64,000 nucleotides of DNA, from NCBI GenBank assembly GCA_964016885.1, contig OZ024742.1, positions 116,312,001 to 116,376,000 of the forward strand, read 5' to 3'. Below, in pieces: positions 5,201 to 60,680 of this stretch. The notes below the pieces were generated by a model, which saw nothing but the letters and a program-made list of their open reading frames with translations, did no database searches and was not told the DNA's origin. Positions within the stretch are counted from its first letter, which is position 1, and every line of letters starts with the position of its first letter. Position numbers and translations under genes: made by a program. The DNA is from Eledone cirrhosa. Its lineage: Eukaryota.

Positions 5201-5745
5201 TATGCCAAGTAAACAATTTACCACATTCTGAGAAGTGGTATGAGCATAAGCCAGAGTCGGTGATGGAAAACGATCAGATGAAGGTGCTGTGGGATTTTAG
5301 GATACAGACGGACAAGAAACTGGAACACAATAGACCTGACCTGGTGGTTTTGGACAAGGGAAAAATATCGTGCCTGATTGTGGATGTAGCCTGCCCATTC
5401 GACACGAGAGTGCAAGAGAAGGAGAGGGAGAAAATTAACCGATACAAGGACTTAAAGTGGGAGGTAAAATGATTTGGAACTGCCATGAGGTCAAAGTGGT
5501 CCCGATTGTCATAGGCGCTCTACGTACTATCTCAAAGAGTTTCTAAGGATAGCTAAAGAAAATTGGTCCCGCCCCGCTTTTTGGAACACTTCAAAAGGCA
5601 TGTTTGCTGGGAACAGCAAGAAGCCTCCGATACGTCCTGAATATCTGAGGCTGCAGGTAGTGGTTTGATATTCATTTCAACAAACTTTCCAGTTAAATAA
5701 CATCAATGACTGAGACTCAAAGAAAAATAATAATAATAATAATAA
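2258..5745 (+). mobile_element. R4/Dong-clade RLE-type non-LTR retrotransposon, near full length, inactivated by stops and frameshifts
   Basis: One disrupted ORF (ORF-track pieces 2402-3352, 3461-5140, 5074-5472; final stop at 5646-5648). RT motifs KSPGPDG, NYRPITCL, WIDYRKAFD, GIFQGDSLSP, HLLFMDDLKLF, YKYLG; CCHC knuckle CRVC..ETVAHIVSEC; RLE motifs RHD, RPDLVVLD, VDVACPFD, EKINRYKDL. Ends in an (AAT)n tract, as expected for Dong elements that target (TAA)n. Confidence 0.92.
3461..5140 (+). pseudogene. Reverse transcriptase domain of the R4/Dong element
   Basis: 559-aa open segment with all non-LTR RT motifs, bounded by an upstream in-frame stop (3350-3352) and a downstream frameshift in a GA run (~5090-5100). 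Confidence 0.9.
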
Positions 5746-5924
5746 TTGTTTCTACTTTAGGCACAAGGCCAGCAATTATTCAGTGCATTACTGGTACTTT
5801 ATTTTATCGACCCCGTAAGGATGAAAGGCAAAGTCAACCTCGTCGGGATTTGAACTCAGATCATAAAGGGACGTAACTATGCTGGAAAGCATGACGTCCG
5901 ACCATCTACCGATACTGCCAATCC
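5743..5924 (-). mobile_element. tRNA-derived SINE (family A)
   Basis: Reverse complement reads ggattggcagtatcggtaga (A-box-like) ... gagttcaaatccc (B box) ... ctttgcctttcatccttacggggtcgataaaataaagtaccag ... ggccttgtgcctaaagtagaaac-(ATT)n. More than 10 copies in the window. Confidence 0.85.
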
Positions 5925-7313
5925 AATAATAATAATAATGGGGCGTCAACATTTTTCCTTCCTCTCTTTAACTCTGTACTTCCTTGACGTCATTAAAAAC
6001 ACTCGTCCTCATATTTTGTTCGCATGTTTTGTTCCATCGTTTGATTAAGGTAATTTCCTAGATAACCGGATAGAATTTCTTTCACAGATGGACCGGTCAA
6101 AGAAATTTTTCAACGTAATAATTTCTCATAGGCTGCACGTTTTCATAAATTTCGCAGAGAAAGAACGAATTAAGTGCAACATAAATAGTATCATCCCACC
6201 AAGTAACAGATCACAAATAATTATTTGGTTAAAGCTATCCAGATATATAGCCGTGTTATCGTTATGCAATTTTGCATCACCAAATGCCCTGTGCTCAATA
6301 TGAAAAGAAGGGAAAACAGCCTTTAAGTAGACTAAGGCTGCCATCTAAAGAAAGATAGTATATACAAGTATTTGAGGATTTTAGAACTGGAAAACATTTT
6401 ACATGCAGAAATGAAAGAAAAGTTTAGAGATATATATTTATATTAAACATGATTAAAATGCTATTCAACGACAATGTATTGTCTTTTAGTCTCAAAATAT
6501 AATTGCTGTAGCGTTTGCCGCTTCTGCTAGTGTTGTTGTTATCTTCTTTTTATTTTATTATTTTTGCCTTATGTTTGAAATATTGGCGGTGGTTTGAACT
6601 CGAATTGACATCTGGCTATTCCATTCAATGGACATCTTGCAGTTGCATTTTACGTATGCGATGAATGGATATTTGCCTCCATTTTTATTATCACTTATCA
6701 ATTATTTGCATTTTAAAATATCGGGGACATATTTCATTTAAAATAGAGACTTTTTAGATAAGGGCCGAATTTTTCAGGGCCGCCACTTTCAATGTATAAA
6801 GTTAGGAATATAATACACAAAAATATAACAATTATGAAAATGCTCTAAGCAATGAAATGAAGAAACTTCATAGAGCTGTAACGATAGATGTTAGGAACGA
6901 TAGAAAGCTAAATATAATTGTAAGAGAAATGGAATTTAGCTTTGATTGGTGACTTTCCTAGTCGTGGTTTACACAATAAAATCACTGGTAGTTGCGCAAC
7001 TTCATAAACGTCAATCACATGACTAAAGAGAAGAAATATGAATTCAAATTGCTATGAGAATGGAAATGTTTATGGAAGTCTAATGGAAGAACCCGAGATG
7101 AAGACGTCGGGCAGAGGAAGTGTAATGGGGGTGGAGATGTTAAAAGCTAACCTCGGGGGATACAGGCGTCCACAGATCCTTATCATGCAGCTGTGCCAAA
7201 AAAATAAAATGCATGTTTTTAACCACAAAAGTGTAAAAGGACGAAATGAAAAGGGTCACAGAAGGACATGGAGCGAAGCATATGATAGCATTAGTAGTAG
7301 TAGAAGTAATAAT

Positions 7314-7682
7314 AATGGTTTCTGATTTAGGCACAAGGCCAACAATCTCAGGGGAAAAGAAAGTCGATTAAATCAACCTCATTCTATTACTGGTACTTTA
7401 TTTTATCGACCCCGTAAGGATGAAAGGCAAAACTAAACTCGGCAGGATTTGAACTCAGAACGTAAAGGATGATAACTCTATGCTACGAACATGGTGTCCG
7501 ACGCTCTATCAATACTGCCAATCCACCGAATTTAATAATAATAATTGTTTCTACTGTTGGCACAAGGCCAGCAATTACGCAGTGTATTACTGGTACTTTA
7601 TTTTATCGACCCCATAAGGATGAAAGGTAAAGTTAACCTCGGCGGGATTTAAACTCACAATGGGAAGGGCCATAACTCTATG
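7314..7682 (-). mobile_element. Two tandem SINE family A copies (7314-7527, 7542-7682)
   Basis: Same ttttatcgaccccgtaaggatgaaaggc core and ggcacaaggcc tail as 5743-5924. Confidence 0.85.
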
Positions 7683-8933: not shown

Positions 8934-10044
8934 AGTAATAATAAATGTGAAGACTAAATTCCGAAGAGGTCTCGATAGGGATTATATATATACATATAAT
9001 AAACATATATAGAATAAACACGCAGAGATAATATCTATCTATATATATATATATATATGAGATGAGAGAGTGGGAGTGAGTGGAGAAATAGAGAGGATGG
9101 GGTAAGTGATAGATGTCCTGTCGGTTTTTGGTTATGCAAAAGTACGAAATAGTAATAAACTAGATAGGATCTCCTTCAATGCTAAATTCAAGTAACGAAC
9201 AATATTTCCTGATGACATCTGGCTTACTAATACTATGGTCATGAAGGTTACGTGAGTTATCAATAAACTTTATCCACCTTTGTTTTACCTGTACCATAGA
9301 TCGGCACTTTTCATATTAACTCTATATTGTATTAGTAAGCAGATTTCTTGCCGCAATATTTGAGTTTTCTGATGATATATTGCGCATAATTATTGCTTCA
9401 TCAAAATATATGAAATATTTCAATAATATTTGCTGCTTCGATATTACATTTTAGATGTAACACCTAATCATTCATTTCATTATATTTAGTTTAGCAATTT
9501 CAATTACTTGGGTAAACACTCTAGTTCACCAACTTGTTGTAAATAGAACCCAACTTCTGTTTATAGGTTCTGTTAATGGCATAGTCAGAAAAGGAAGTGC
9601 AGTGCCCTGAAGTTTTCTAAGCATCCACGACAGTTGAGATGAAACGAAATGTCTGTACTCAGGCCAGTGATCCAGGAGGGATTACAATAAAAAAGCAGTA
9701 ATTGTTTTATGTAGGGTTTACTCTATCTATAACGAGATATATTATCAAGAGGAAAAATTAAAAACGTTGTGCCGAAAATGTATCACGTTAAATGTTTTTA
9801 AGCTATAAAATGCATTATAACGTTAAGATATAATATATGATATAATATAATATAATGATAAAATATAATATATAGTACAAAATATATGTAATTTAATACG
9901 ACATGCTATAATAATATATGGAATAAAGTATATAATAACATCTGAAGTTAGCTTAACTTAGTAACTATTAGTCAATTGGAAACCTCTTGTTGTGACTTAA
10001 ATAGAGTGAATAAGAGCATTATTTCTTTGATGTCGCGGTGGTGG

Positions 10045-10225
10045 ATTGGCAGTAACAGTAGAGAGTCGGACGCCATGCTTTCCAGCGTAGTTACGTCCCT
10101 TTACGGTCTGAGTTCAAATCCCGCCGAGGTTTACTTTGCCTTTCATCCTTACGGGGTCGATAAAATAAAGTACCAGTAATGCACTGAGTAATTGCTGGCC
10201 TTGTGCCTAAAATTAGAAACAAATA
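10045..10225 (+). mobile_element. SINE family A
   Basis: A-box-like tggcagtaacagt, B box gagttcaaatcc, conserved core and tail. Confidence 0.88.
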
Positions 10226-10619
10226 TTTCTTTGATGTATCATCTCCGCTTGGCTTAGCCAATTTTACCAGTATTGTTTATTTTTTTTTTTTCTTGGAGGA
10301 CTAGATTGGATAGGATTCACGACATGCGAGAATGGCGAATAAAAATTGAATTTATGGACCATGGTTTATATGAAACATTTTCGATGGAATTGTATAACCT
10401 TGTGTTGTAGAAATGTGTCATTTACACAGGTGAGCTGGCGAATAGTGACTCAACTACGTTTTTTTTCAATCAGCTTAAACTCCTATGCAATTTAAGATAG
10501 GTAAAATGATGAGTGGTTAAATAACAATTAAAATTGTGTAATCATTAGTCGAGGCTATAATAAATACAGTCAGAAGAGGCATCTCTGGAGTGTCGAGTGA
10601 GAGAGAAAAAATGTTCGTA

Positions 10620-12102: not shown

Positions 12103-12240
12103 GTTTGAGGTTCACCACTGTATAGAGCTGGTCTTTTCCGTATGGTCAATCGTAATGTAATAATATAGAGAGTACTCAACGTAAAGCAGTTCAACCGTCT
12201 TTGTTTTTGTAGTTGGTGGTGCTATTACGGAGTTAAATAT

Positions 12241-12402
12241 TATAATGAAATGACAGGAGGCTGGATTTGTGTAAATCCCTTGAAAGATTTATTATACTAT
12301 GATCATTTCAATGACCGGGTTCCGTATGAATCCGGTCATTGAAATGATCATAGTATAATAAACCTTTCAAGGATTTACACAAATCCAGCCTCCTGTCATT
12401 TC

Positions 12403-12408
<6 letters not shown>
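12241..12408. repeat. Fold-back inverted repeat made of the 3' half of a hammerhead module (family of 22088-22145)
   Basis: Near-perfect arms around the imperfect hairpin accgggttccgtatgaatccggt. Each arm carries GAAA-tgatca-TA-gtat-aataaa but no CTGATGA. A further partial arm lies at 12441-12473. Confidence 0.9.
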
Positions 12409-12446
<38 letters not shown>

Positions 12447-20611: not shown

Positions 20612-21010
20612 GGGCGGTGGATTGGCTGTATCGGTAGAGGGTCGGAGGCCATTCTTTTCAGCAAAGAGTTACGGCCCCTTATGATCTGAGTTCAAATCCC
20701 GCCAAGGTTAACTTTGCCTTTCATCCTTACGGGGTCGATAAAATAAAGTACTAGTAATACACTGAGATAATTGCTGGCCTTGTGCCAAAAGTAGAAACAA
20801 TTATTAGCGATAAACGATGAATTCGCAAGACCGAGAGTGAGCGTCGGAGCAGTATCGGTAAAGAGTTGGAGGTCATGTTTGCAGCATAGAGTTATGGCCC
20901 TATACGGCCTGATTTCAAATCCCACCAATTTTAACTTTGCCTCTCATCCTTACGGGGTCGATAAAATAAGGCACCAGTAATGCACTGGATAATTGTGCCA
21001 CAAGTAGAAA
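20612..21010 (+). mobile_element. Two SINE family A copies (20612-20803, ~20848-21010)
   Basis: ggcggtggattggctgtatcggtagag head, gagttcaaatccc B box and conserved core. Confidence 0.85.
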
Positions 21011-21366
21011 AGATGAATTACGTTATGGTTATTTTACATTCAGCGATCAGATCTCGCACTATCAGATATGTAGTTGAGTATGTCTGACCATCTGTACCCA
21101 CATACATACACATACGTAACAAAGGTTGTGTCTTGTCACACAGCCAAGGAGAATAACGCTTAATCTATTGTAAGAAGCTAATTTAATATGAATCAAATGC
21201 CATATACTTCATATGTTTGCATGACCATAGGTTCCGGGGTTTAGTTATGACTCCCACAAAATAGTGGAGGATCTGTTCTAATACTCGCATCTCATAGGAC
21301 CAAATTCTGGATTCCGAAACCTAAGGACATGCATAAAAGCTAATTTATATGAAATTATAATGATAC

Positions 21367-31563: not shown

Positions 31564-31967
<404 letters not shown>

Positions 31968-32333: not shown

Positions 32334-32724
32334 TATAATTATTATCATTATTATTTTATTTAAATTAATAATTAGTTCCTAATTATTAATTTAGTCGAAT
32401 ATCCACTTGACGTAATACATTACACATGCATTTACCTTATAAGTACGTATGCACTAGTTGATGTATTCGTCAAATGACGTAAATTTTGCTAGATGTAATC
32501 TACGTCTTCGTTTGTAGTCGAAGTTCTACATGACGCCCTCTCGTTAATCTTACGTATTTCTAAATTTTGAATACCATATTTGCCCTTAAATATATTGAAA
32601 TGTTTCTATCTACGTCCCTTGATGTTAGAACATCTATGTTCCTGTGATATCTTTAGAGGAGAAATGCAAAGATCAAGTGATTAAATATATAATTTGTTCA
32701 TTCATTTATATATTTGTTCATGCA

Positions 32725-32759
<35 letters not shown>

Positions 32760-32967
32760 TAGATATTAATTCTTTATATATATATATATATATATATAAA
32801 GAATTAATATCTAGTAACATATATATACATACAGATGCATATCAATGCTAGCAAATATATAGGTTTTGTCTTCGTAACATTGTGGTTCAATGCATGGGGT
32901 TGCAGAACAATAATATAAGAGACGTAAAATAAGAAAATTATAAAATTAACTTACTTACTAAAATATC

Positions 32968-33049
32968 ACTTCCAACTAATTAGTTTCTGGAATGGAGTAA
33001 ATATATTTTCCGAAAAGGATATTGAGAAACATTCCGTCGTCAGGGAAGT
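32968..33049 (-). ncRNA. Type I hammerhead ribozyme
   Basis: acttcc-CTGACGA-c-ggaatg...cattcc-a-GAAA-ctaattag-TT-ggaagt: 6-bp stem I, 6-bp stem II base, palindromic stem III, GUU triplet. Confidence 0.88.
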
Positions 33050-33489
33050 CTATTCTCAGCTATGTTTCCAGGCAAAGCGAGGACTCTGGAAACTTATTAA
33101 AAAATAATTCAGAGGATAGGAAATAGCAAAGCGTGGACTGAATTCCTAGCCATTGAGAAAATCACTGCCTCTGCGTCTGTGGCAAATTCAAAAAGAATCA
33201 ATCACGTGACATCGAGGCCAATCAGTGGAAAGTGGTTTGCTAATAAGACAGCGGCCTGCCTACTACCAGTGCAGCAGTCATGGCCAATATTGCTCGACAA
33301 ATAATTTGGAGATAATTATAAAGAATTAATATCTAGTAACATATATATACATACAGATGCATATCAATGCTAGCAAATATATAGGTTTTGTCTTAGTAAC
33401 ATTGTGGTTCAATGCATGGGGTTGCAGAACAATAATATGAGAGACGTAAAATAAGAAAATTATAAAATTAACTTACTTATTAAAATATC

Positions 33490-33571
33490 ACTTCCAACTA
33501 ATTAGTTTCTGGAATGGAGTAAATATATTTTCCGAAGAAGATATGGAGAAACATTCCGTCGTCAGGGAAGT
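33490..33571 (-). ncRNA. Type I hammerhead ribozyme (second monomer)
   Basis: Same core and stems as 32968-33049, 522 bp away. Confidence 0.88.
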
Positions 33572-34026
33572 CTATTCTCAGCTAAGTTTCCAGGCAAAGC
33601 GAGGACTCTGGAAACTTATTAAAAAATAATTCAGTGGATAGGAAATAGCAAAGCGTGGACTGAATTCCTAGTCATTGAGAAAATCACTGCCTCTGCGTCT
33701 GTGGCAAATTCAAAAAGAATCAATCACGTGACATCGAGGTCAATCAGTGGAAAGTGGTTTGCTAATAAGACAGCGGCCATAGCAGCAGTCATGGCCAATA
33801 TTTCTCGACAAATAATTTGGAGATAATTATAAAGAATTAATATCTAGTAACATATATATATACATATATATATATGTAACATATATATATATATATATAT
33901 GTAGGAGGTGACTTTTATTGTAGTACAATAAAGCAATGCAGATATCGGATAAGAAGCACTCTACAGTTTGTAGGACTGGAGTATACATAATATATAAGAT
34001 CAAAAGATGGTTAAAAGAGTTCCATG

Positions 34027-34097
34027 TATTTTATTATGCGCATTTCAAAAACAAGTATCATCATGCAATAATATTTGTGTTTTCATCAGATAAAATA
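34027..34097 (-). ncRNA. Type I hammerhead ribozyme
   Basis: tattttat-CTGATGA-aaacacaaatatt...gatacttgttttt-GAAA-tgcgca-TA-ataaaata (8-bp stem I, palindromic tgcgca). An inverted partial copy starting inside stem II lies at 34146-34230. Confidence 0.85.
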
Positions 34098-34221
34098 GGA
34101 AGACATGATATGAAGGTTAAAAAACACTTGTGAATAGTGCAGTTTATTATTGCATGATGATATTTGTTTTTGAAATGCGCATAATAAAATACATGGAACT
34201 CTTTTAACCATCTTTTGATCT

Positions 34222-34260
<39 letters not shown>

Positions 34261-34273
34261 TATATCTGTGTGG

Positions 34274-34311
<38 letters not shown>

Positions 34312-34339
34312 ATGTGTATATATATTATATATATATATT

Positions 34340-34401
<62 letters not shown>

Positions 34402-34444
34402 TATACGTGGGTATGTATGTGTAATAAACTTTAATATAGTGAAG

Positions 34445-34494
34445 GCTTCTACAGGACTATAACTGTTTCATTCGAAGGAAATCATCAAGAGAGT
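34445..34494 (-). ncRNA. Degenerate HHR (family of 42346); second copy at 35153-35202
   Basis: TTGATGA-tttccttcgaat-GAAA-cag-ttatagtc-ctg-TA-gaagc; core C3 and stem I altered. Confidence 0.55.
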
Positions 34495-34510
34495 GTGATA
34501 TTTATATCTA

Positions 34511-34548
<38 letters not shown>

Positions 34549-34556
34549 AAGTAAAA

Positions 34557-34985
34557 TAAATAAGTCAAATCTTTAAAACTTAGCTTCGTTTATTACTGCT
34601 ATATATATTTCGGTGACAGCCATCTTTGGCTGTGACCTCTTCAGGCAGTCCGAATTAGTGTGGTATAGACTAGTACATATGTTGTTGAAGTGTATCATTT
34701 TGTCAATACTCTGATATGCCCAATTCCTGGTTGGGTTGTTATTTCACTGAGGAACTGGAATCATATGATTCATATGATTCCAGTTCCTCAGTGAAATAAC
34801 AACCCAACCAGGAACTTGGCATATCAGAGTATTGACAAAATGATACACCTCAACAACATATGTACTAGTCTATACCACACTAATTCGGACTGCCTGAAGA
34901 GGTCACAGCCAAAGATGGCTGTCACCGAAATATATATAGCAGTAATAAACGAAGCTAAATTTTAAAGATTTGACTTATTTTACTT
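34557..34985. repeat. Near-perfect ~430-bp palindrome carrying two divergently oriented HHRs
   Basis: Arms meet at ggaatcatatgattcatatgattcc (~34770); the right arm continues as unique module sequence to ~35085. Confidence 0.93.
34889..34943 (+). ncRNA. Type I hammerhead ribozyme (mirror copy on minus strand at 34595-34649)
   Basis: actgc-CTGAAGA-ggtcacagcc/ggctgtcacc-GAAA-tatata-TA-gcagt-AATAAA. Confidence 0.88.
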
Positions 34986-35217
34986 CATTTTACATTACTC
35001 CGGAGTAACCAAACCAACCTGCGCACTTCGTCTAGTGCTCCAGCTTGCATACTGAGGTGTTGGTATACAACCAATATATACTCAATATATATATATATAT
35101 ATATACATATATACGTGTGTATGTGTTTGTAATAATATTTAATATAGTGAAGGCTTCTACAGGACTATAACTGTTTCATTCGAAGGAAATCATCAAGAAA
35201 GCGTGATATTTATATCT

Positions 35218-35298
<81 letters not shown>

Positions 35299-35572
35299 GG
35301 AACAGATGGAAACGAAATTTTATTTCTCATTCTTAATACGGCTGATACCTAAATATAAGTATGTATGCGTACATACATATATGTGTACAGACGCACAGTA
35401 GTATGTATATATATATACATGCATGCATGCATATATATATATATATATATGTACGTATGGGCTTACCGAACATTTCTTATAATGTTCGGTTTGTTTGTAA
35501 ACAAACAGCCTAAATTACGCCGTACAGTGCTCGGTAACCATCGTTGCCCTTTTGTTCAACACCTAAACAGGA

Positions 35573-35615
35573 ACGATGTACTAGTTTCAAGCTTATTAGT
35601 TATCGTCAGCATCGT
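35573..35615 (-). ncRNA. Minimal type I hammerhead ribozyme inside a terminally redundant ~441-bp unit (35295-35795)
   Basis: acgatg-CTGACGA-taactaataagctt-GAAA-ctag-TA-catcgt. Direct repeats aaatggaa...tacggctgatacc at 35295-35356 and 35736-35795. Confidence 0.82.
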
Positions 35616-35789
35616 ATACCTTTCTGTCAGATGATTGAACATCTGAAAATATATACTTTCCTTAAGTATATTAACGGCTGAGCAGCCAAATTTGCATATC
35701 GAGTGAGTGAGGCGGCCGGGCATACCGAAAACGATAAATGGAAAAGAATGAAACGAAATTTCATTTTACACTCTTAGTACGGCTGATAC

Positions 35790-35826
<37 letters not shown>

Positions 35827-35910
35827 AAAGTTCTATTTAAATTGTTGGGATACAACAAGCAAATATTTTTATAACTGATATAAAGCACTCAACAAATATT
35901 TGGAGTAAAA

Positions 35911-36256
35911 ATACGATATTAACAAATGGAAACTATATTTATAAAACCATATTTATTTCATTATACATATTTCAAGGACACCAAGTTAAATTATGGTTTG
36001 CTTTCATCAGATAAAATATAATATAGATCAGTTTTATAAATAAATATTGACATACCCTTAAAGAATGCAACCATTACTGTTGGAAGCTCAACAGTAATGG
36101 TTGCATTATTTAAGGGTATGTCAATATTTATTTATAAAACTGATCTATATTATATTTTATCTGATGAAAGCAAACCATAATTTAACTTGGTGTCCTTGAA
36201 ATATGTATAATGAAATAAATATGGTTTTATAAATATAGTTTCCATTTGTTAATATC

Positions 36257-36260
<4 letters not shown>
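35911..36260. repeat. Near-perfect 350-bp palindrome carrying two HHRs
   Basis: Arms meet at tgttggaagctcaaca (~36085); the right end runs into (TA)n. Confidence 0.93.
36153..36217 (+). ncRNA. Type I hammerhead ribozyme (mirror copy on minus strand at 35954-36018)
   Basis: tattttat-CTGATGA-aag..acca/tggt..ctt-GAAA-tatgta-TA-atgaaata (8-bp stem I with one G.U pair). Confidence 0.82.
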
Positions 36261-36307
<47 letters not shown>

Positions 36308-36450
36308 GTAACATTTTCAAGGCTCGTTAATCATCGTTTTATATTGATGATGTTTCAGTTTCTGTCAGAATCCTTGCATCGATCAAAAAATATCTTGAGT
36401 TATTTGCTTAAGTTCATGCCCATGTCGAATGTGGTAACCTATTTACATGT

Positions 36451-36551
36451 AATTGTTTCTACTTTAGGCACAAGGCCAGCAATTAACCAGTACATTACTG
36501 GTACTTTATTTTATCGACCCCGTAAGGATGAAAGGCAAAGTTAACCTCGGT
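36451..36551 (-). mobile_element. SINE family A, 5'-truncated
   Basis: Conserved core and tail. Confidence 0.8.
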
Positions 36552-37079
36552 GACCTATTTACATGTAATATACTGTAGGAAGGCATGAATATAAGATTGA
36601 TTAAAATTCTTAGTGATGAAGCACCATCTTGGCCGCGGCTAATATCTGTTATTGCTGAAATGTAATAAGTTTCAGTTCTTTTTTTCTTATATCGCAATTT
36701 GCAATTATTCAAACTTTTGTCTGCTACATTACTGCAAATGAGATCGTTATTTCTTTATAATAGGAAAGGTAATGTCAGCTACTACAGAATATGTGATGGT
36801 GTTGTTTTATGTTTTGCTTTGATGTATTTTTAAATGATGTCAACATATTTGTGAGCGTAATTTGTCAAACATGTCAGCATACAAACGGTACATAGCATAA
36901 AGTATTTTTTTCCTAATTTATTTATCTTTTTATTCATTTTTGTACGACGCTCTGTTCACTTTTTTAAAATCTAAATAGTTTTATTAATAAACGTTACATA
37001 CATACATAGAAAGGTTCATACAAACATACATACATACAAACAAACATACAAAATACATAGATGTTTCTATGTTTATTTG

Positions 37080-37116
<37 letters not shown>

Positions 37117-37117
<1 letters not shown>

Positions 37118-37199
37118 CTGACATAGCTGTAAAAGAGGGTGTTTCCATAATTGCAAACGAATTGAATATTATTATTATGTGAAAAACTCAGATTACATT

Positions 37200-37283
<84 letters not shown>

Positions 37284-37297
37284 TGTATATATATATT

Positions 37298-37335
<38 letters not shown>

Positions 37336-37344
37336 AATATATTG

Positions 37345-37393
<49 letters not shown>

Positions 37394-37479
37394 CAAATGT
37401 AATCTGAGTTTTTCAAATATTAATAATAATATTCAATTCGTTAGCAATTTTGGAAACAGACTCTTTTATAGCCATGTCA

Positions 37480-37482
<3 letters not shown>
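37117..37482. repeat. Diverged ~85-bp inverted repeats flanking a ~195-bp (TA)n tract
   Basis: actgacatagctgtaaaagag...ctcagattacattt versus aaatgtaatctgag...ctcttttatagccatgtcagt. Confidence 0.8.
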
Positions 37483-37540
<58 letters not shown>

Positions 37541-37575
37541 TATTAATTGTATATATATATATATTTTATTATTAA

Positions 37576-38426
37576 CTAGCAGTAAAGCCCGGCGTTGCTC
37601 GGGGTCGCTCAGTAGCTGTGTTAAAGTTACAATGTTAAGTTTCTTTCTTGGCTTAAAAACTGTAGTGTCTACTGTGCAGTCTTGCATGTGGTGTTTTTGA
37701 TTAATATTCCTTCAACCAACAATATGCCTTATGAAGTTAAGAAAACATAACGATAACCCGAATATTATAACAAAAGAGGATGCTGGGGATAGAAACTGCA
37801 CTGGTTATTTATTAACAAAGATCGAAAATGTAAACACTGCAACGCAGAGAAAAACATTAGCGTAACCAAATTATCAGTTATGTCTGTCTGCACGCCTATA
37901 TCACCTCTCTGCACGACTATCTGTCTGCACGCGTATATCACCTCTCTGCACGACTGTCTGTCTGCACGACTGTCTGTCTGCACGCCTAACGAAATTTACA
38001 GATACATATATTTTAAATAAACTTATATAATTTTTGCTTTTTTTTTACGAAATATTTGCTTGTTTTACGTAGTCTTTAAATAGACTTGTTTTCAAGTAAA
38101 AATATTGTTTTAAAATGCTTTTAAATGGAATGTATTGTGTTAATGTCATTTTAAACGCTGAGAAAGCCAGCGTAATTTTTTACGTAAGACGCTCAATGTA
38201 AACAGAACAAAGGGAAATAACTGATAACTTACGCTCAAAAATCGATACATTATATTCGATTTCGTCACATAGGGTGGGTCAATTTGAAATTGTTTTTTCC
38301 GATGTCTTCGCTAGGGCTCAACGTACAAGTCTAACAATTTCGGTGCCATTCCGTGAGAGATTCTAAGAGGAGATGTGTGCCAAAAATCGATAGACAGACA
38401 GACAACCACAGTTTTATATATATAGA
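37576..38426 (-). mobile_element. Non-autonomous Helitron
   Basis: Minus strand starts TC(tatatatataaaac) after an A and ends with the hairpin cccgagcaacgccggg followed by CTAG before a T (A|T target, no TSD). Internal tgtctgtctgcacg tandem repeats at 37880-37985. Confidence 0.8.
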
Positions 38427-38575
38427 TTGTATATATATATATACAATTAAATTGCTTTATAACGAGATCAACCAAAACAAATTGAGAGTATGTTATTACA
38501 TCGGGACTTAAAAATAATCTGTTATACTTAACAATTCGTTATAACAGAATTTTACCTGTATATATATATATATAT

Positions 38576-39021
38576 ACTAGACCTGAAAAATGCGCAAGCT
38601 CAAAGGAGCCACATAATGTTATAATATACCTTCAAAAGTGTGGGACTAGAGTTGTTGCTCAAAATTATTGTTATCATTATCTATCGTACCCTCTGTGGCA
38701 TCCTTTTATAAAAAAGACTCTCATAACGAACTCAAGCCGACACGATACTTTTTTGAGCTAATGATCAATATCTCATATTAGATGTTTAGTAATGATTAAT
38801 ACGAAATGCACTTAAACCGAATTCTATATTATAAATTCACTTAAATAATTATCGTGTCGACTTGAGTTGGTTATGAGTCTCTTTGTTATAAAAGGATGCC
38901 ACCGAGTGTACGTTAGATAATGATTAGAATATTTTTGAGCAACAACTCTAGTCCCACGCTTTTGAAGGTTTATTATAACATTATGTGGCTCTTTTGAGCT
39001 TGCGTATTTTTCAGGTCTAGT
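38576..39021. repeat. Inverted repeat, ~170-bp diverged arms with a ~100-bp spacer
   Basis: actagacctgaaaaatgcgcaagctc... versus ...gagcttgcgtatttttcaggtctagt; the right arm is also similar to 50042-50176. Confidence 0.85.
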
Positions 39022-39071
39022 TCAATATCTTTTTTATGCAACGCATATAATAATTCTAGTTAAACATGATA

Positions 39072-39173
39072 TATCTATCTATCTAGGGCGGATAACATTC
39101 CCGATATCCATGGACGAGTTCTCTCCAGCGGTCTCTGACCCTCATTATCGCTGCCATGTCCTGCATCTCCAAC
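39072..39173 (-). mobile_element. Short RTE/RTEX 3' end with (TAGA)n tail
   Basis: Reverse complement matches 19298-19388 ([13 protein letters not shown]). Confidence 0.8.
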
Positions 39174-39711
39174 ATTAAATAAATATATTTTACATAATAA
39201 TTATTTTGGTTGAATTAATAAAAATTAAATATTACATACAAATATTCTAACATAATAATAAAAAAATAATCTAACATAATAATAATAAAATAATCTAACA
39301 TAAAACGAACAATAATATGGACATATATACAAGTAAAAATGATACAACCAATATTATAAGCATGTTATAACGAACTGAAAAACAAATAGTTAATATAAAT
39401 TTTAAAAATCATATATAAATTAACTATATAACTTACCAAAAGGAGAAATACAGGAGGAAGATTCAGAAGCGAAACGATAAGTAAACGCGCAAACTAAGTG
39501 GCGGGTGCTTTTGAGCAACAATTACTCTCATTGGTTGATTAGCCAATACGACGATGAAATTAGCCAATAAGACGATACATTACAAAAGATGTTTGGCAGG
39601 GATCACCACGGCCAGCAAAACCCCTTGAATTTTTAATTCACAAACTACGCATATAGGTCAGAACACGCAGTCTTAAAACATTCTGCTGTTAGTCACTGCG
39701 TGTCTAACAGA
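39174..39711. repeat. Dispersed repeat, copy at 51065-51611
   Basis: Colinear similarity, including repeated agccaat motifs and aaacattctg...gtcactgcgtgtctaaca. Confidence 0.8.
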
Positions 39712-39959
39712 TTAGTAAAAAGGAAAATAAAATGCTGACAAATGTTTCCCAGTGAAAAATAGTTTAATTATGAATAAGTATAAATTAGTAATAAGTATTA
39801 CTTAGTATTCAGTTTTAGTTTTGAGTTTTTACCGGTTGCGCATTTCTTGCGCATAATTTTGAGATGGAGTGCTCGTGATGTTTGCTCTAATCAGATTACT
39901 ACTATATCACAACTCGTGATTTTTGCTCTAATCAGACTATTTTTTAAATATATATATAT

Positions 39960-40643
39960 ATAAAGAATTAGTATATCTACTAACACATTTATACAGAAAT
40001 ATACTTATGCTAGCAAAATATAGGTTTTGTCTTAGTAACTGTGTGGTTCAATACAAGACGTAAAATAAGAAAATTATAATAATTAACTTACTTACTTAAG
40101 TTTCACTCCAACTAATTAGTTTCTGAAAGGGGATATATATAGTGTTCAAAACCATGGAGAATTCATTTCTTCATCAGGGAGTCAATTCTCTGCTAAGATC
40201 CCTGGCGATAGGCGGACGCAGGGATCTCAAGCAAAAATAATTCAGTGAATGGAAAAGGAGCAAGCTCAGACTAAATTTCAAGGCACTGCTATGATTCATA
40301 GTAATATTTTGGCTACTGTCTTTTTAACACCCCACTCCTCACTGATTAACCTCGATGTCATGTGATCGATTCTTTTGAATTTGCCACCGACCGAGAAGGT
40401 AGTGAAATTTTCAGTGTCTTGAAATTTAGTCCGCGCTTGCTTCTTTCCCATTCACTGAATTATTTTTGTTTGAGATCCCTGTGTCCGCCTATCGCCAGGG
40501 ATCTTAGCAGAGAATTGACTCCCTGATGAAGAACGGAATTCTCCATGGTTTTGATCATTATGTATATCTTCTTTCAGAAACTAATTAGTTGGAGTGAAAC
40601 TTAAGTAAGTAAGTTAATTATTATAATTTTCTTATTTTACGTC

Positions 40644-40646
<3 letters not shown>
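39960..40646. mobile_element. Diverged relative of the 522-bp HHR monomer, arranged as an inverted pair
   Basis: Starts taaagaattagtatatctac like the 32796 unit; arms ~40056-40285 and ~40415-40646; (TA)n flanks. Confidence 0.85.
40518..40595 (+). ncRNA. Type I hammerhead ribozyme (counterpart on minus strand at 40105-40182)
   Basis: actcc-CTGATGA-agaa...tttca-GAAA-ctaattag-TT-ggagt. Confidence 0.83.
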
Positions 40647-40685
<39 letters not shown>

Positions 40686-40796
40686 GAATAGAGGTGTGAC
40701 TATATATATATAGTAATGCTCATAAATTTGAAGACTAAAATACAAAGAGGACTCCATAAGGATAAATATATATCAGATATATAAGAACCGTAGAGC

Positions 40797-40898
40797 AAAT
40801 ATTTATTAAAATAACAGATTAAAGTTTAAGCAACGGATCGTTAAGGATGAAAGCAGCGATTCTTTGCTTAAACTTTAATCTGTTATTTTAATAAATAT
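40797..40898. repeat. Short fold-back hairpin next to (TA)n
   Basis: atatttattaaaataacagattaaagtttaagcaa versus ttgcttaaactttaatctgttattttaataaatat. Confidence 0.85.
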
Positions 40899-40904
40899 AT
40901 ATAT

Positions 40905-41043
<139 letters not shown>

Positions 41044-41321
41044 TTTTCTTTAATTCATTTCAATCCTTTTCTAATAAATTTATCCATTCATCTGTCTGAG
41101 TTCTATAATAGTTATTTCCGTTTCATTCCTTCGAAAACTGTTTCCTTGAGAAATCATCACACGATCTTTTCTGAATTTATCGTACGTTATCGTTTTGAGA
41201 CAATAAGATAGGATGTAATTATAATTCCTGCTACCCTAAACTCAAATATTATTTTATCCAATACTTATGAAATAATGTGATATGTACATATACTTACCTA
41301 AAGAAATAAATGATTCTCTTA

Positions 41322-41518
41322 TAGACACAAGGCCAGTAATTTGGGAGAAGGGGAATGTCGATTAAATCGACCCCATTACGTTGCTGGTGCTTTATTTTAT
41401 CGACCCCGTAAGGATGAAAGGCAAAGTTAACCTCAGCGGGATTTTAACTCAGACCATAAAGGACAGTAACTCTATACTTCAAAGCATGGTGTACTACTCT
41501 AGCCATACTGCCAATCCA
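41322..41518 (-). mobile_element. SINE family A
   Basis: Conserved core, head and tail. Confidence 0.82.
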
Positions 41519-42118
41519 AAGAAATGAATTACAAATAAAGAAAGGTCTTTTCTGGACATGTACTATGTGCGTGCAATGTAATTATTGTAAATATAAAGAT
41601 AAATATGTATATATATATATAGATGTGTGGGGTGGGAACGTGTGTGTACAATAAGTATTATGTCTTTTTAATTTAGGTACGAGGCAAGCAATGTGGAGGT
41701 ATGAGAGAAAGTAGATATAGACCGACCTATGGTAGTTTAATTTTAGGGCGCCTGAGAGGATGAACAACCCCCAATAATTTGATACTTTGAATGCTTATTT
41801 CTGTTATAAGTATGGACGATTAACACATGAGGGAGTTGTAGGGACACCGTAGTATCATTTGCCGATTGTTGGGTAATTTAAACTTGAGGAGATTGGGGAC
41901 AGTCGATTTCTTGAAGAGAATGAGTTAGTGATATAGAAGAAAAATTCTCTCTATTATGGGAATGGTACTATTTTTATCAATCACAAAAGGAGGAAAGGCA
42001 AACTTGAACTTATTGGAATTTAAACTTGGAGCATAGATACTCGCAACGAATACACCAAAGCATCTTATCCGACGACTTACGATTCTACCAATATATATAT
42101 ATATATATACACACACAC

Positions 42119-42212
<94 letters not shown>

Positions 42213-42345
42213 GTAGGTCCCGGGTTGAGTCGGGGATAACCACAGTAAGTAAGGTACTCAATACATGGCAGAGTAAATTGTTTTTATTTTATAGAAGGAG
42301 CTTCTACAGGACTAGTACTGTTTCATTCAGATGAAATCTTCAGGA

Positions 42346-42396
42346 AGCTTCCTGAAGATTTCATCTGAATGAAACAGTACTAGTCCTGTAGAAGCT
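42346..42396 (+). ncRNA. Type I hammerhead ribozyme in a perfect palindrome (mirror copy on minus strand at 42299-42349)
   Basis: agcttc-CTGAAGA-tttcatctgaat-GAAA-cag-tactagtc-ctg-TA-gaagct. The palindrome (~42287-42408) is centred on aag|ctt, inside the 5' strand of stem I. Confidence 0.88.
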
Positions 42397-42434
42397 CCTT
42401 CTATAAAATTAAAAAAAAAAAAATAAATAAATAA

Positions 42435-42485
<51 letters not shown>

Positions 42486-42558
42486 CAGATGGTAGCTAAG
42501 AGGATTCCATACGCGGTATGCCGGTTGAGCACTCTATGCTCTTACAGTGCAGAGTATG

Positions 42559-42778
42559 ATATAATATAAAACGAAAAATCAGTGATGCATCTGAACTCAA
42601 TTTATTGTGTGTTACAATTGTTTCCCCGGCCGACAGCTCTAGACGCGATCATTGCGTGGATCACTCTGATTCTGGACCCGCAGATAGATCGCGTCTCGAG
42701 CTGTCCGCCGGCGAAACAATTGTAACACACAATAAATTGAGTTCAGATGCATCACTGATTTTTCGTTTTATATTATAT
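42559..42778. repeat. Fold-back inverted repeat made of HHR 3' halves around a long GC-rich stem II-like hairpin
   Basis: Perfect outer arms carry GAAA-caattg-TA-acacac-AATAAA; the inner hairpin (~42625-42712) is imperfect; no CTGANGA. Confidence 0.85.
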
Positions 42779-46615: not shown

Positions 46616-46728
46616 TATATTTGCTCTACGGTTCTTATATATTTGATATATATTTATCCTTATCGAATCCTCTTTGGATGTTAGTCTTCAAATTTAATAT
46701 TATCTCTCTCTCTATATATAAATAAATA

Positions 46729-49231
46729 ACACGGTTGTGTATGATTGTGTATAGAAGATTATATTAATAAAAGGAATTCCAACCTTGTCTGATTTACTCG
46801 TTTTATTTACAATCGTTTAAAATTTATAATGGTATTAGAATGAAATAGTATGGTAGAATATTAAATGTTAAGTGTTAATTGAACAAGAACTTTCATGATT
46901 TCGCAATCTTCGGGTTCATATCTGTGGTGACAGTCAAGTTTGCAATTTTCAACTCTAATGAGATGGGTAAATTTTTTGCCTTATATACAGTGAAAAGTGG
47001 CTACAGAATGCTAAATGTTGCAAACTGTATTTTGACCAATCGGTGTGTAGTTTCACTGGATTACTAAAGCTGATTGGTTTAGGCGCCACGGTTGGTTGAG
47101 AATGTCTAACGACTACTATTTGACCCAATCCGAAGCATCAATTGTTTTGCTATTTTTAGAAATGTACTCATCACATCAACATCACTTTTATTATTATTAT
47201 TGTTGTTGTTGTTAGTGGTCTTAGTCATAGTCATGGTAGGATTAATACCCCATTATAATTGTTCATCTAGCTTGGATTGGAATTCATCAATAAAATTATT
47301 TTCTTTGATTTTTCTCTTGATTTCACTTGGGCTGTGTAATTTGTATAATGGAAATATAAATATTCTCTGACCACATGTTGCTAGATGGTTACTCAGGGGT
47401 ACCTGACGGACATATGGGTCTCTGATTTGCTGTCGGTATACCCGTGCACTTTCCGATAGTGCATTTCCAGTTTGACCGACATATAGTTCTTCACAATTCG
47501 GGCATTTAATGCAGTAAATTAGATTTCTGCTTTTGCAGTTCATATTTGCATTTGGGAATTTTTTTCAAGTTTTTTTATCATATATTGACCGGTATGTATG
47601 GATTGACATGTGCCACATCGACTATCATTGCATTTAGATACAGTGAATTATTGGTCTTTGTTGTTAAGGTCAAACTTTGCTTTGTTAGTAATTGCTTCAA
47701 ATTTTTCGGCTGTCTTTTACTAAGAGTCAAAGATCGATCTGTGATTAAGCCTTTTAATTCATTACTTTGAGCAATGATCGGTAGGTTTGCTTTGGCAGTG
47801 TTGAAGATATTCTGGTGACATGGGTTGTGTGTCATTATAAATGGTATGACCAGTTCTTGGTTTCTTCTTCCTTGGGTTGTCCTAAGTTGTTGTATATGTA
47901 TTTTTATAACCCGCTATATGCCATGTTCTATAAGTAGAGATGGGTATTTTTGTTTGAGCAAAAATTCTCGCAGTTCTGTTAGGCGTTTGTTCCTGGTATT
48001 CGTATTTTCTACAATGGTACATATTCTTCTGGCTAGGCAGTATGGGATGTTGCGTTTTGTATGAGGTGGATGGCACGACTTAAAATTCAGATATTGATGG
48101 GTGTCTGTGTGTTTATAATATATATCCGTGGTAATGGTGGTGTCGTATGTGATTACCATTATATCTAGGAATGGTAATTTGGTACTACTCATCTCTTTTG
48201 TGAATTGGAGAGATGGGTGTAGATTATTCAGGAGGATATTGAACTCATCCAGAGTATGTAGAGATTCTGTCCAGATGATGAAACAGTCTTCAAGGTATCT
48301 CTTCCAAGATTGTTCAATGTACTTTCTAAAGACAGTACTATATTTTTCCTCTATTTCTTGGTAGAGTTGTTGTTCTAAGTATCCCATTACAGAGTTCGCG
48401 TAAACGGGAGCAAACTTCGTTCACATGTAATTATTTCCATTGAAGAAGAAAGTGTTGTTTTCCAGAATAAATTTGACTGCGTCTAATATGAATTGTGCTG
48501 TGTATCTGGTGGGAATCACTTCTCTATGTTTTTCCACACAGTATTTAACCGCCTTTATTCTAAATCATGTGTAATGTTGGTGTAAAGGCTTACCACATCA
48601 AAACTAAGTAGAAGTGAATTCGTTTCCGTGGTTTTGGGAAGATGGGACAAGAAGTCGATATCATCCCGGATGAAACTGGGTATGTGAATACATAGCGGTT
48701 TTAAAATAATGTCAACAAAATTGCTTAGACGGTGGGTAGGGCATGTTGGACCAGCTATAATAGGTCTAAGTTTTAAGTCTTTTGGGTGTAGTAATTTAAT
48801 GTTCTCACTGTTTTGTTCTTTTACTGCCAGGTGTATTTCTTTTGACTTATGAACTTTCGGTAGGCCAAACAGGTTGCTGGGTTTTGGCTCAAAATTGGTG
48901 ATGTAGTCTCTTTCCTTTTCAGTAAGTGAGTTGTGGTATTTTGAAGCCAGGTTGTTGATCTTCTTCATGATGTTGTGGTCTATATTTGACGGTATTTCAT
49001 GATAGAATGTTGTGTCTTTCAGTTGTTCCTCAACCACATCTTTGTAGTATTCACCATCCATTATTACAGCTGCACCCCCTTTATTTGCTAGTTTAATTAT
49101 TATTGTTTTATCATTTTGTATACGTTTAAGTGCAGACATTTCTGATTTGTTAATGTTTGACCTAACATTAGTATTACGTCTAAGAGGAAATTTAGACAGG
49201 ATGTCAATGTATTGGTCGAGATAGATATTTC

Positions 49232-49235
<4 letters not shown>
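46729..49235 (-). mobile_element. Penelope-like retroelement, 5'-truncated and decayed (RT + GIY-YIG + 3' UTR/pseudo-LTR)
   Basis: IIIKLANKGGAAVIMD, LFGLPKVHK, LRPIIAG, SFDVVSLYTNI, WKRYLEDCF (RY.DD), LPFLDI, TDIYYKHTDTHQYLNFKSCHP, NCKSRNLIYCIKCPNCEELYVGQT (GIY-YIG). 3' non-coding region 46729-47250 has an HHR-like motif at 46880-46918; (TA)n at the 5' junction. Confidence 0.92.
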
Positions 49236-49307: not shown

Positions 49308-49378
49308 TATTTTATTATGCGCATTTCAAAAACAAATATCATCATGGGATGATATTTGCGTTCCCATCAGATAAAATA
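49308..49378 (-). ncRNA. HHR of the 34027 family with a core mutation (CTGATGG)
   Basis: tattttat-CTGATGG-...caaatatcatc/gatgatatttg...-GAAA-tgcgca-TA-ataaaata. Confidence 0.72.
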
Positions 49379-52977: not shown

Positions 52978-52985
<8 letters not shown>

Positions 52986-53398
52986 TAAAAGAAATTCCAA
53001 CTTTGTCTGATTTACCCGTTTTATTTACAATCCTTTAAAATGTATAATGATATTAGAAGGAAATAGTATGGTAGAATATTAAATGTTAAGTGTTAATTGA
53101 ACAAGTACTTTCATGATTTCGCAATCTTCAGGTTCATAATGTGTGGTGACAGTCAAGTTTGCAATTTTCAACAGTTGAAAATTGCAAACTTGACTGTCAC
53201 CACACAATATGAACCTGAAGATTGCGAAAGCATGAGAGTACTTGTTCAATTAGCACTTAACATTTAATATTCTACCATACTATTTCATTCTAATACCATT
53301 ATGAATTTTATAGGATTGTAAATAAAACGAGTAAATCAGACAAAGTTGGAATTCCTTTTATTAATATAATCTTCTATACACAATCATACACAACCGTG
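52978..53398. mobile_element. Solo PLE 3' end (pseudo-LTR) in fold-back configuration, homologous to 46729-46952
   Basis: Arms meet at ttttcaacagttgaaaa (~53173). HHR-like tgaac-CTGAAGA-ttgc-GAAA-gcatgagagtac-TT-gttca at 53210-53248 (+), with a counterpart at 53098-53136 (-). Confidence 0.88.
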
Positions 53399-53404
53399 TA
53401 TATT

Positions 53405-53454
<50 letters not shown>

Positions 53455-56040: not shown

Positions 56041-56727
56041 GCACACAGTGTTTGTATGAGTTGCTAACGATGATCCGAGGCCAGATCACTTCCCCTAATG
56101 AGGGTTCCTATCATGCAGAGCAAGCAATCTTCACCGGATGGGATTCCAGCTTCATTCACACCGTTAATTATTTAATTTCTTTTCTTTTTGCATCATGATT
56201 CTATGAAAGTGGTTTGTGGGATTTTTATTGAGATACCATTCTATGTAGCCTGCCTTACTTAGCTAAAGAGTGTTTATTTAATAATTATTATTATATCATT
56301 ATCAACATCTATATATAAATCTATGTAACTCTGTCACAACACGTAAAGAGAGAGGAGTAGTCTGTCTACCTCATACAACTCCTCTCTCCTTACGTCTGAT
56401 GCCTGCTTGAATGTATGTTTGTGTAAAGGAAGAAACTAGAAGTATTCTCTGTGTGTGAAAGAGTGTAGAATTGTGTGTGTGTATGTGTGTGTGTGTGTAA
56501 GAAAGTCGAAGTATGTGTGTGCGTGTGTAGAAGTGTGTAGACGAGAGTGTGTATTTTTGTAAGAGTGTCTGTCTTTGCACATTTATATTTATATACTCAT
56601 ACATATAAATGTGTGTATATATACACATACACACAGAAACACATACATTTACACATACGCGTCAGCGTGTTGAAAAAGCCTACTTAAAGAAATCATATTT
56701 GCCATTATTATCTTTGCCATTATTATA

Positions 56728-57090
56728 GAGAGTCGGACACTATGCTCTGAAGCATAGAGTTACGTCCCTTTATGATCTGAGTTGAAATCCCGCCGAGGTT
56801 AACTTTGCCTTTCACCCTTACGGGGTCGATAAAATAAATTACCAGTAATGTACTGGCTAATTTCTGGCCTTGTCCCTAAAATAGAAACAAGTATTATTGA
56901 ATTGGCAGTATCGGTAGAGGGTCGGATGCCATGCTTTACAGAATAGAGTTACGGCCCTTTATAATCTGAGTTCAATTCCTGCCGAGGTTAACTTTCATCC
57001 TTACGAGGTCGATAAAATAAAGTACCAGTCACACGCAATGGGTCGATTTAATCGACTTTCCCCTCCCCCGAAATTGATGGCCTTGTGCTT
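56728..57090 (+). mobile_element. Two tandem SINE family A copies
   Basis: B box and conserved core in both copies (56728-56890, 56900-57090). Confidence 0.85.
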
Positions 57091-57113
57091 TTGTATCCCT
57101 GTTTCCCGAGCTG

Positions 57114-59669: not shown

Positions 59670-60680
59670 TATATATAAATAAAATTAGTGCGAGCCATAA
59701 CTAAATTAAGTTATCGGGACAGAGGAAAGGAAACAAATAACATGGTAATAATTGTTTCTACTTTAGGCACAAGGCCAATATCATGGTAATAATGCAACGT
59801 AAAGAGAGGAAAAGAGAGACAAGTCAATGAATCTTGTGGGCTTAAGTCCGATAAATCAAATGACGAGAAGAAACAGACGGGCCGAGCCACGAGAAAAGTG
59901 AGAGAGGAAGAGTAGCAGAGAGTGAGTGAGTGAAAGTGTGAGGGAGGGACCAGCCAAGAGTCAGTGACCAGCAGCGGGAATGGAGGAAAGCAAGAGGTGA
60001 AGGAGAGATAAGGGGGTGAGAGAAAGAGGATAGCAGTAAGGTGACACAAAAAATACGAAGCACAGCGAAGGGAAAAAATATATGTGAATGAAAAATAGCG
60101 TGTTGCTTTGACGAAGGACATTCTTGTTTCTACGTCTATTTTAATTCATATGTTCATATTCGCAACAACGAAGCACGCCATTTTACATTCACATATTTTT
60201 TTTTTCTTCGCTGTGGTTCATATTTTTTCTGTCACCTTACTGCTATCCTCTTTCTCTCTCCTTCACCTCTTGCTTTCCTCCACTCCCGCTGCTGGTCACT
60301 CACTCTCGGCTGGCCCCTCACACTTTCACTCACCCATCTCTGCTACTCTCCTCTCTCACTTCCTCCCGTCTGACCCACGTGAATTTCTTTCCTCTCTCAC
60401 TTTTCTCGTGGCTCGGACGCTCTGTTTCTTCTCGTCATTTGATTTGTCGGACTTAAGCCCACAATATTCATTGACTTGTCTCTCTTTTCCTCTCTTTAGG
60501 TTGCATTACTATTATGTTGTTTGTTTCCTTTCCTCTGTTTTTCTATGTCCCGATAACTTAATTTAGTTATCGCTCGCACTGATTTTAGGTATCTAGTCTT
60601 TAATGCGAAGAAATACCAACGATAATCAGCAGGCTACTGATGAAGGACATTCCTGTTTCTCGGTCTATTTTTATTTATAT
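59670..60680. repeat. Large diverged inverted repeat (~430-bp arms) plus a direct repeat at ~529-bp spacing; pLTR-like organisation
   Basis: 59675-60105 is the reverse complement of ~60170-60590; tgacgaaggacattcttgtttct at ~60108 recurs as CTGATGAaggacattcctgtttct at 60637; TA-flanked. Confidence 0.75.

Follow-up and report, generated by a model that had tools for sequence, protein, structure and literature searches.

A probable retrozyme-like repeat family in Eledone cirrhosa, with compensatory changes inside and outside its hammerhead motif

A palindrome and a tandem array of the same repeat

Positions 39960-40646 of the window (the whole 64 000-nt stretch of Eledone cirrhosa DNA that was analysed) hold a palindrome of two 5′-truncated arms between (TA)n tracts, rather than the single monomer-type unit described in the original prediction, which a model had made from the letters of the DNA. 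The arms form a 234-nt inverted repeat (40055-40288 and 40412-40645; 94% complementary, 123-nt spacer), each with a type I hammerhead motif, so that the region carries two on opposite strands (Table 1). Both arms have their 3′ ends on the outside, in (TA)n. The left one finishes on the letters that also close the monomer array described below, the right arm stops 58 nt past the predicted cut site, and a one-sided tail of about 90-95 nt belongs to the left arm only. The E-box-like block in the unpaired centre is a putative promoter element.

By sequence comparison both arms are 72-76% identical to the 511-522-bp tandem monomers at 32796-33828, as expected if the locus is a diverged relative of that unit, which had been proposed. 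At least two units stand head to tail there, each with a complete type I hammerhead; the 39960 copy is inverted, not tandem. The two subfamilies (32796 monomers versus 39960 arms) have diverged by 22-28%. The monomer unit is non-coding, with GC under 50%: there is no long reading frame in any of its sense frames, and it has no RT plus GIY-YIG frame, which within the window occurs only in an unrelated remnant at 46724-49235. At 32757-32798, about 20 nt of monomer 3′ end lie inverted beyond the (TA)n tract with 3′ ends facing, the opposite geometry to that of the palindromes.

Table 1. Features of the two subfamilies and of the PLE remnant, in window positions
Feature	Position	Strand	Remarks
Monomer 1, 522 bp, other subfamily	32796..33317	-	Hammerhead 33049-32968; P0 33096-33061; 3′ end in (TA)n 32779-32798
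Monomer 2, 511 bp, head-to-tail	33318..33828	-	Hammerhead 33571-33490; P0 33618-33583; followed by about 30 nt of a third monomer
(TA)n tract, left arm 3′ end	39949..39962	.	Element's last letters TTCTTTAT run into tract; end point as in 32796 monomer
Left arm	39960..40288	-	5′-truncated; monomer positions about 163-522; 72% identical to monomers
Left-arm-only tail	39960..40054	-	Homologous to monomer 3′ end; contains long hairpin at about 39972-40022
A/T-rich conserved block with hairpin, 3′ of cleavage site	40055..40104	-	Letters same in both arms (0/50 differ)
Type I hammerhead motif, left arm	40105..40182	-	Predicted cut between 40110 and 40109; stem II mismatch at 40165
P0 hairpin, left arm, 11 bp, 5′ of ribozyme	40194..40229	-	3 compensatory and 1 one-sided change versus monomers
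Unpaired palindrome centre (upstream part of right arm)	40289..40411	+	E-box-like site 40358-40365; 6-bp mini-hairpin 40289-40301
Right arm	40289..40651	+	Inverted, 5′-truncated; 75-76% identical to monomers
P0 hairpin, right arm	40471..40506	+	Helix comparison
Type I hammerhead motif, right arm	40518..40595	+	Predicted cut between 40590 and 40591; stem II mismatch at 40534
(TA)n tract, right arm 3′ end	40648..40681	.	Sequence
Broken 5′-truncated PLE (RT, CxxC linker, GIY-YIG) with hammerhead-like 3′ repeat	46724..49235	-	Not homologous to monomer

Paired changes within the hammerhead

All four copies keep the type I order CUGANGA, GAAA, UH with stem I open (H being U), and GAAA-ctaattag-TT, which had been noted as conserved, is present in each. 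The claim that the subfamilies differ only at N7 (CTGATGA versus CTGACGA) is right inside the core but not at its edge, where A9 is followed by C (monomers) or A (arms), opposite an invariant A, making a mismatch ahead of the stem II G-C pair. This extra base (C or A) followed by the G-C pair is common to the four copies, as is a second extra A before G12. Core plus stems I and III changed in 1 of 31 columns, as compared to 73 of 331 overall (P 0.002 for the right arm, 0.010 for the left).

The paired stem I indel (acttcc/ggaagt versus actcc/ggagt) is confirmed, with P 0.008 for a same-direction pair, falling to 0.002 when the lost bases are required to pair, under a uniform model of 8 indels in 335 columns; slippage in the TT and AA runs would raise these values. 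Automatic MAFFT alignments put this indel in the wrong place. At the base of stem II, the letters of the reported change (ggaa/ttcc to gaaa/tttc in the 40105 copy) are as reported but its significance alone is weak: when letters of the second subfamily were shuffled among like columns, P was 0.056 for the left arm (5/6 paired, one compensatory change) and 0.006 for the right arm (5/6 paired, two compensatory changes). Across the four copies of this 6-bp base, two of the six pairs changed on both sides and 34/36 cells are paired, each arm breaking one pair, a different one; the shuffle control on the four-row alignment gave 38/500. The stem II interior has indeed diverged in its letters (11 of 31 columns), but TTCTC and a distal hairpin are kept in the hammerhead-constrained fold of all four copies.

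For the monomers the best predicted structure is the hammerhead fold. Neither arm folds in this way, the hammerhead lying 5.2 kcal/mol (40105 copy) and 8.3 kcal/mol above the best fold, with a stem II pair probability of 0.0; by these predictions the 40105 copy, on which the stem II argument was built, has probably decayed. Stem III is a perfect 10-nt palindrome, invariant in the four copies, with a predicted self-dimer energy of -9.0 kcal/mol. The predicted cut-site triplet is GUU, a weak cut triplet, and together with the mismatch that opens stem II it may lower activity. PMC1636495 has no passage on GUU. GAGAA, 5′ of stem I, could form 5-7 bp with UUCUC of the stem II internal loop in all four copies, a possible pseudoknot in place of the usual loop-loop contact; in the best folds, however, GAGAA also pairs elsewhere.

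A stronger signal outside the ribozyme

The strongest covariation lies in the P0 hairpin, outside the ribozyme, and was overlooked in the original prediction. This 11-bp hairpin ends 11 nt ahead of stem I and ranked top in an exhaustive search for helices shared by both subfamilies (88 and 89 helices common to the two). Three of its 11 pairs changed on both sides and one on one side only, yet 43 of 44 cells are paired, the sole break being in monomer 1. At its fixed place P is 1.2e-4 and 5e-5, and a helix of such quality arose anywhere in 7 of 1500 shuffles. On the other side of the balance, some shared helix with at least two compensatory changes came up in 21% of shuffles. Slid registers of P0 pair at 16-53%, versus 98% in register.

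Constraint extends to the other side of the ribozyme as well. The 49 nt 3′ of it are conserved, with 5/49 changes relative to monomer 2, and the fold of the 40055-40104 block has z of -1.4 and -2.8. Both subfamilies have a long hairpin just ahead of their 3′ end (z -3.4 in the left-arm tail, -2.4 in monomer 1); the fold z is -4.4 for monomer 2 and -2.9 for the right arm. Judged from the sequences, the hammerhead is one part of a larger constrained structured RNA, whose covarying unit includes P0 and probably the hairpins 3′ of the ribozyme; P0 and the 3′ hairpins are most likely folding or protein-binding signals.

These results qualify what had been concluded from the stems alone. The case for selection on RNA structure while the element spread holds up, in a comparison of four copies from the window that amounts to two lineages aligned in full, and the stem I indel, stem II and the sparing of the core all agree with it; however, given P0 and the conserved 3′ segment, the ribozyme is not alone in carrying the signal. 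The stem II change of the 40105 copy, offered as the best internal evidence of function, does not carry that weight: it is marginal alone, it sits in a copy that does not fold as a hammerhead, and P0 is the stronger case. Covariation moreover speaks for a kept fold, not for cleavage. That the hammerhead functions by cleavage seems to us only somewhat better than an even bet.

The family in public reads

Public reads were compared over the stretch 39900-40411, in four of seven runs; those of X4 are not taken as evidence of expression. In the 3′ half of the ribozyme, summed X1 contig depth (depth, not copy number) reaches 317,530 (at 40098-40115) and 278,789; the E-box-like block has 113,841 and the conserved A/T-rich block at 40055-40104 is also deep, versus a low of 445-497 at 40152-40205, over the stem II interior and the ribozyme's 5′ half. 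Depth is zero over the flank of the 39960 locus, for which skipped repeats may be the cause. The family is thus large, with subfamilies that share the catalytic 3′ half and vary in the paired periphery. One X4 contig links 40256 to 40405 on opposite strands, which fits a non-inverted copy.

The letter that family reads carry at 40165 mends the pair broken in the left arm (277 of 308 summed X1 depth); the X5 RAD reads are mixed there, 19/63 with the pairing letter and 25/63 with a third letter. This indicates that the left arm's broken stem II pair differs from the family state. Two further stem II interiors appear as loose ends among those listed, at 40135 (13 contigs, agreement 0.77) and 40143 (6 contigs, agreement 0.68); by eye, both close the distal hairpin, and they differ by a C-G to T-A change. 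The read data support kept pairing, though they are not a covariation test, because letters are unlinked between partners. The perfect E-box letter at 40361 is carried by the family reads (109444 of 109747 summed X1 depth).

The 14 differences between the arms (40055-40288 versus 40412-40645) spare the core, stems I and III, the P0 stems and the 50-nt downstream block. They number 0 in 115 constrained positions as compared to 14 in 119 others (P 8e-5 with classes picked post hoc; 0.055 by an unbiased run test), a sparing that is unexplained under neutral decay of both arms and would follow if the left and right arms of the 39960 palindrome came from separate template RNAs, as they may have done. 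Against this, public reads favour the right arm's letter at seven of the 14 differing sites, mostly near 100% (the other seven lie outside the rows listed), which fits later decay of both arms.

Insertion ends and the PLE context

An inverted, 5′-truncated copy, a tail at one end and a (TA)n target are all present at 39960-40651, and these three features are PLE hallmarks (PMC8557442). Within 200 nt of (TA)5 lie 15 of 16 measured hammerhead copies, as compared to 30% of random places, the copies being non-independent and their cut positions set by hand. Tandem and palindromic insertions alike cross the predicted cut site intact, and they end at two fixed points, 58 or about 150-175 nt 3′ of that site.

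The window also holds a PLE remnant (Table 1) whose RT and GIY-YIG have relatives in molluscs; it is for the broken RT frame that the named relatives are mostly molluscan. Within the window, the monomer has no sequence homology to this remnant or to its 3′ repeat, but the remnant is the kind of element that could supply an enzyme. With a CxxC linker ahead of GIY-YIG, it is putatively Neptune-like by the description in PMC8557442. CCAAT and TATA boxes in the remnant are followed by a small hammerhead with a core change, and its 3′ end recurs as a tailed palindrome at 52978-53405 with a 95% match.

Comparison with known systems

Animals are already known to carry such elements. Metazoan non-LTR retrozymes, as described by Cervera and de la Pena (2020, PMC7229834) and Li et al. 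(2026, bioRxiv 10.64898/2026.07.22.740005), likewise consist of non-coding head-to-tail units with one type I hammerhead each, and share the low GC (under 50%), the palindromic stem III and the presence of PLEs in the same genome. The first of these papers defines the class and proposes PLEs as its movers; the second ties Xenopus retrozymes to pLTRs and saw cleavage in one of nine dimers. The axolotl retrozyme hammerhead HHR_Amex2 has a mismatch at the base of helix II, as here. Our unit of 511-522 bp is above the 170-400 nt given in PMC7229834 and within the 51-972 bp of the bioRxiv report. Unlike the retrozymes described in the accessible parts of those papers, it occurs as a palindromic insertion with a one-sided tail in (TA)n and has a covarying hairpin 5′ of the ribozyme. 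It matches the class in its tandem arrangement, its non-coding sequence and its predicted hammerhead.

There are also likenesses to the pLTR hammerheads of EN+ PLEs (PMC4209133, PMC8557442 and PMC11167929): a long helix II of 6-8 bp, a short helix I of 5-6 bp, a stem III that is palindromic, pairs in opposed orientation at spacings of a few hundred bases, and families with compensatory changes. The extra base after A9 before a G-C pair is a partial likeness, since a second extra A stands before G12 here. Inverted 5′-truncated copies, a single-end tail and (TA)n bias are shared too. In contrast to EN+ PLEs, our unit has no RT/GIY-YIG frame, an extra A before G12, a structured stem II interior of about 35 nt, and a tail of about 90-95 nt versus 30-40. 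At both ends a few of its letters match the (TA)n target; the PAc start site has no target homology. PMC8557442 calls hammerhead function in EN+ PLEs unclear, and PMC11167929 reports that internal start sites account for the tail, that both strands are extended, and that hammerhead-dead mutants insert unimpaired in vitro. Pseudoknots and palindromic stem III are treated in PMC3088659, and PMC6962438 counts 235 hammerhead loci in a squid. Compensatory changes between hammerhead families of PLE-related repeats are already stated in PMC4209133. In the literature searched, outside whose scope lie most subscription papers, we found no work that describes the present family, nor any that describes a covarying hairpin next to ribozymes of this type.

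Interpretation

We favour, with a probability of about 75%, a non-coding, non-autonomous, retrozyme-like element of about 520 nt that depends on PLEs, whose RNA fold has been kept by selection while subfamilies diverged, and which inserted as arrays and palindromes. Under such a cycle, tandem copies would be transcribed and the type I hammerhead would cut, probably as a dimer via the self-complementary 10-nt stem III, a step to which we give modestly favourable odds. Monomers would then be circularised, or uncut multimers would serve as template; a circular or uncut template is proposed because the insertions span the cut site, while from a linear monomer that had been cut no more than the 150-175 nt 3′ of the cut could be copied. 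A PLE RT/GIY-YIG protein would nick (TA)n, and copying would start at one of two fixed sites, of which the ends are observed and the enzyme is surmised. The outcome would be either an array of head-to-tail units, as at 32796-33860, or a palindrome of two arms with a tail on one side, as at 39960-40651. The palindrome could arise from fold-back or from priming on both strands, between which the centre of the 39960 palindrome fails to separate, and the 39960 arms would have decayed after insertion.

A different account would make the hammerhead a passenger or a protein-binding fold: the structure, core included, would be selected, cleavage would be dispensable for insertion, and uncut RNA would be the template. 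The strongest covariation does lie outside the ribozyme, insertions do cross the cut site intact, the stem II base is atypical and the cut site has U; core mutants are without effect on PLE insertion in vitro (PMC11167929), and eight of nine Xenopus dimers were uncleaved (bioRxiv 10.64898/2026.07.22.740005). We nevertheless find this account doubtful, as all catalytic core letters are kept, the sole core change falling at the free position N7, and the stem III palindrome is invariant, as a dimeric ribozyme needs (PMC4209133). It is rather unlikely, too, that the units are only the 3′ ends (pLTRs) of an autonomous PLE coded elsewhere and not an independent non-autonomous family. They are built like the 3′ end of the window's PLE remnant, with promoter-like boxes, a hammerhead and an end in (TA)n. 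That 3′ end is itself also found as a palindrome at 52978-53405, and PLE hammerheads are described with a long stem II, a short stem I and opposed pairs at spacings of 100-700 bp (PMC4209133); yet two full monomers repeat head to tail from the same start without a coding remnant. Chance changes in two diverged repeat copies, with no structural selection, would gain from there being two lineages, from the P of 0.056 for the cited stem II change and from slippage in TT and AA runs making a paired indel likelier than the uniform model allows, but are very improbable when P0, stem I, stem II and the core agree in direction, slid P0 registers pair so poorly and family reads restore the 40165 pair.

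The preferred reading of a PLE-dependent, retrozyme-like element can be extended to a bolder form that is probably wrong in at least some part: the hammerhead would make the circle, a PLE reverse transcriptase would be loaded in trans by P0 and the two 3′ hairpins, which would also determine the two fixed start sites, and one family would thereby yield both rolling-circle arrays and PLE-type palindromes. If true, genome sequence would show directly that PLE enzymes act on animal retrozyme RNAs, and the structural handles involved could be named. The role of the hammerhead in PLEs and retrozymes, and the enzyme that moves retrozymes, are still open according to PMC8557442, PMC7229834 and PMC11167929. 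Covariation tests should profit from a family so large and so rich in subfamilies, and P0 beside the ribozyme offers a second element to mutate independently of the catalytic core.

Other motifs and repeats in the window

The window is AT-rich animal DNA with many microsatellites. A scan for the type I hammerhead motif retrieved 15 matches in the 64 kb, as compared to a mean of 0.33 in 30 shuffles. The 15 lie between 22088 and 53248 and fall into about eight unrelated-looking families, most with a self-complementary stem III and several with a mismatch at the base of stem II. Rfam gave no match at gathering score in the window and no hammerhead family among 109 weak matches in 32700-42500; the long stem II insert may explain the missing match. 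Weak Rfam miRNA matches proved to be palindrome centres and microsatellites. Pattern scans for relatives found no loci in metagenome contigs, viral contigs or prokaryote genomes. A second hammerhead family occurs at 34027-34097 (-), 49308-49378 (-) and 36153-36217 (+), its related copies varying in stems II and III.

Further palindromic insertions with 3′ ends outward lie at 34544-34990, 35911-36260, 42278-42417, 52978-53405, 33982-34236 and 12234-12416. Several of the other palindromes have a central spacer of 1-6 nt, which suggests fold-back. Among these insertions, the two arms differ in how far (TA)n lies from the cut site (147/58, 139/48, 93/48 and 177/121 nt, tail and flank not being separated), and the 147/58 pair, in an unrelated family, equals that of 39960-40651. 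Older palindromes, with 72-88% arm identity and no hammerhead detected, are at 59672-60595, 38576-39021, 42559-42778 and 31564-31855. A dispersed repeat family, in which the motif scan found no hammerhead, has many copies in both orientations (5716-5939, 7311-7682, 10037-10227, 20613-21043, 36450-36552, 41305-41529 and 56714-57095). At 2402-5472 (+) the broken frame of a non-LTR retrotransposon includes an RT domain (Pfam RVT_1, E 4e-20).
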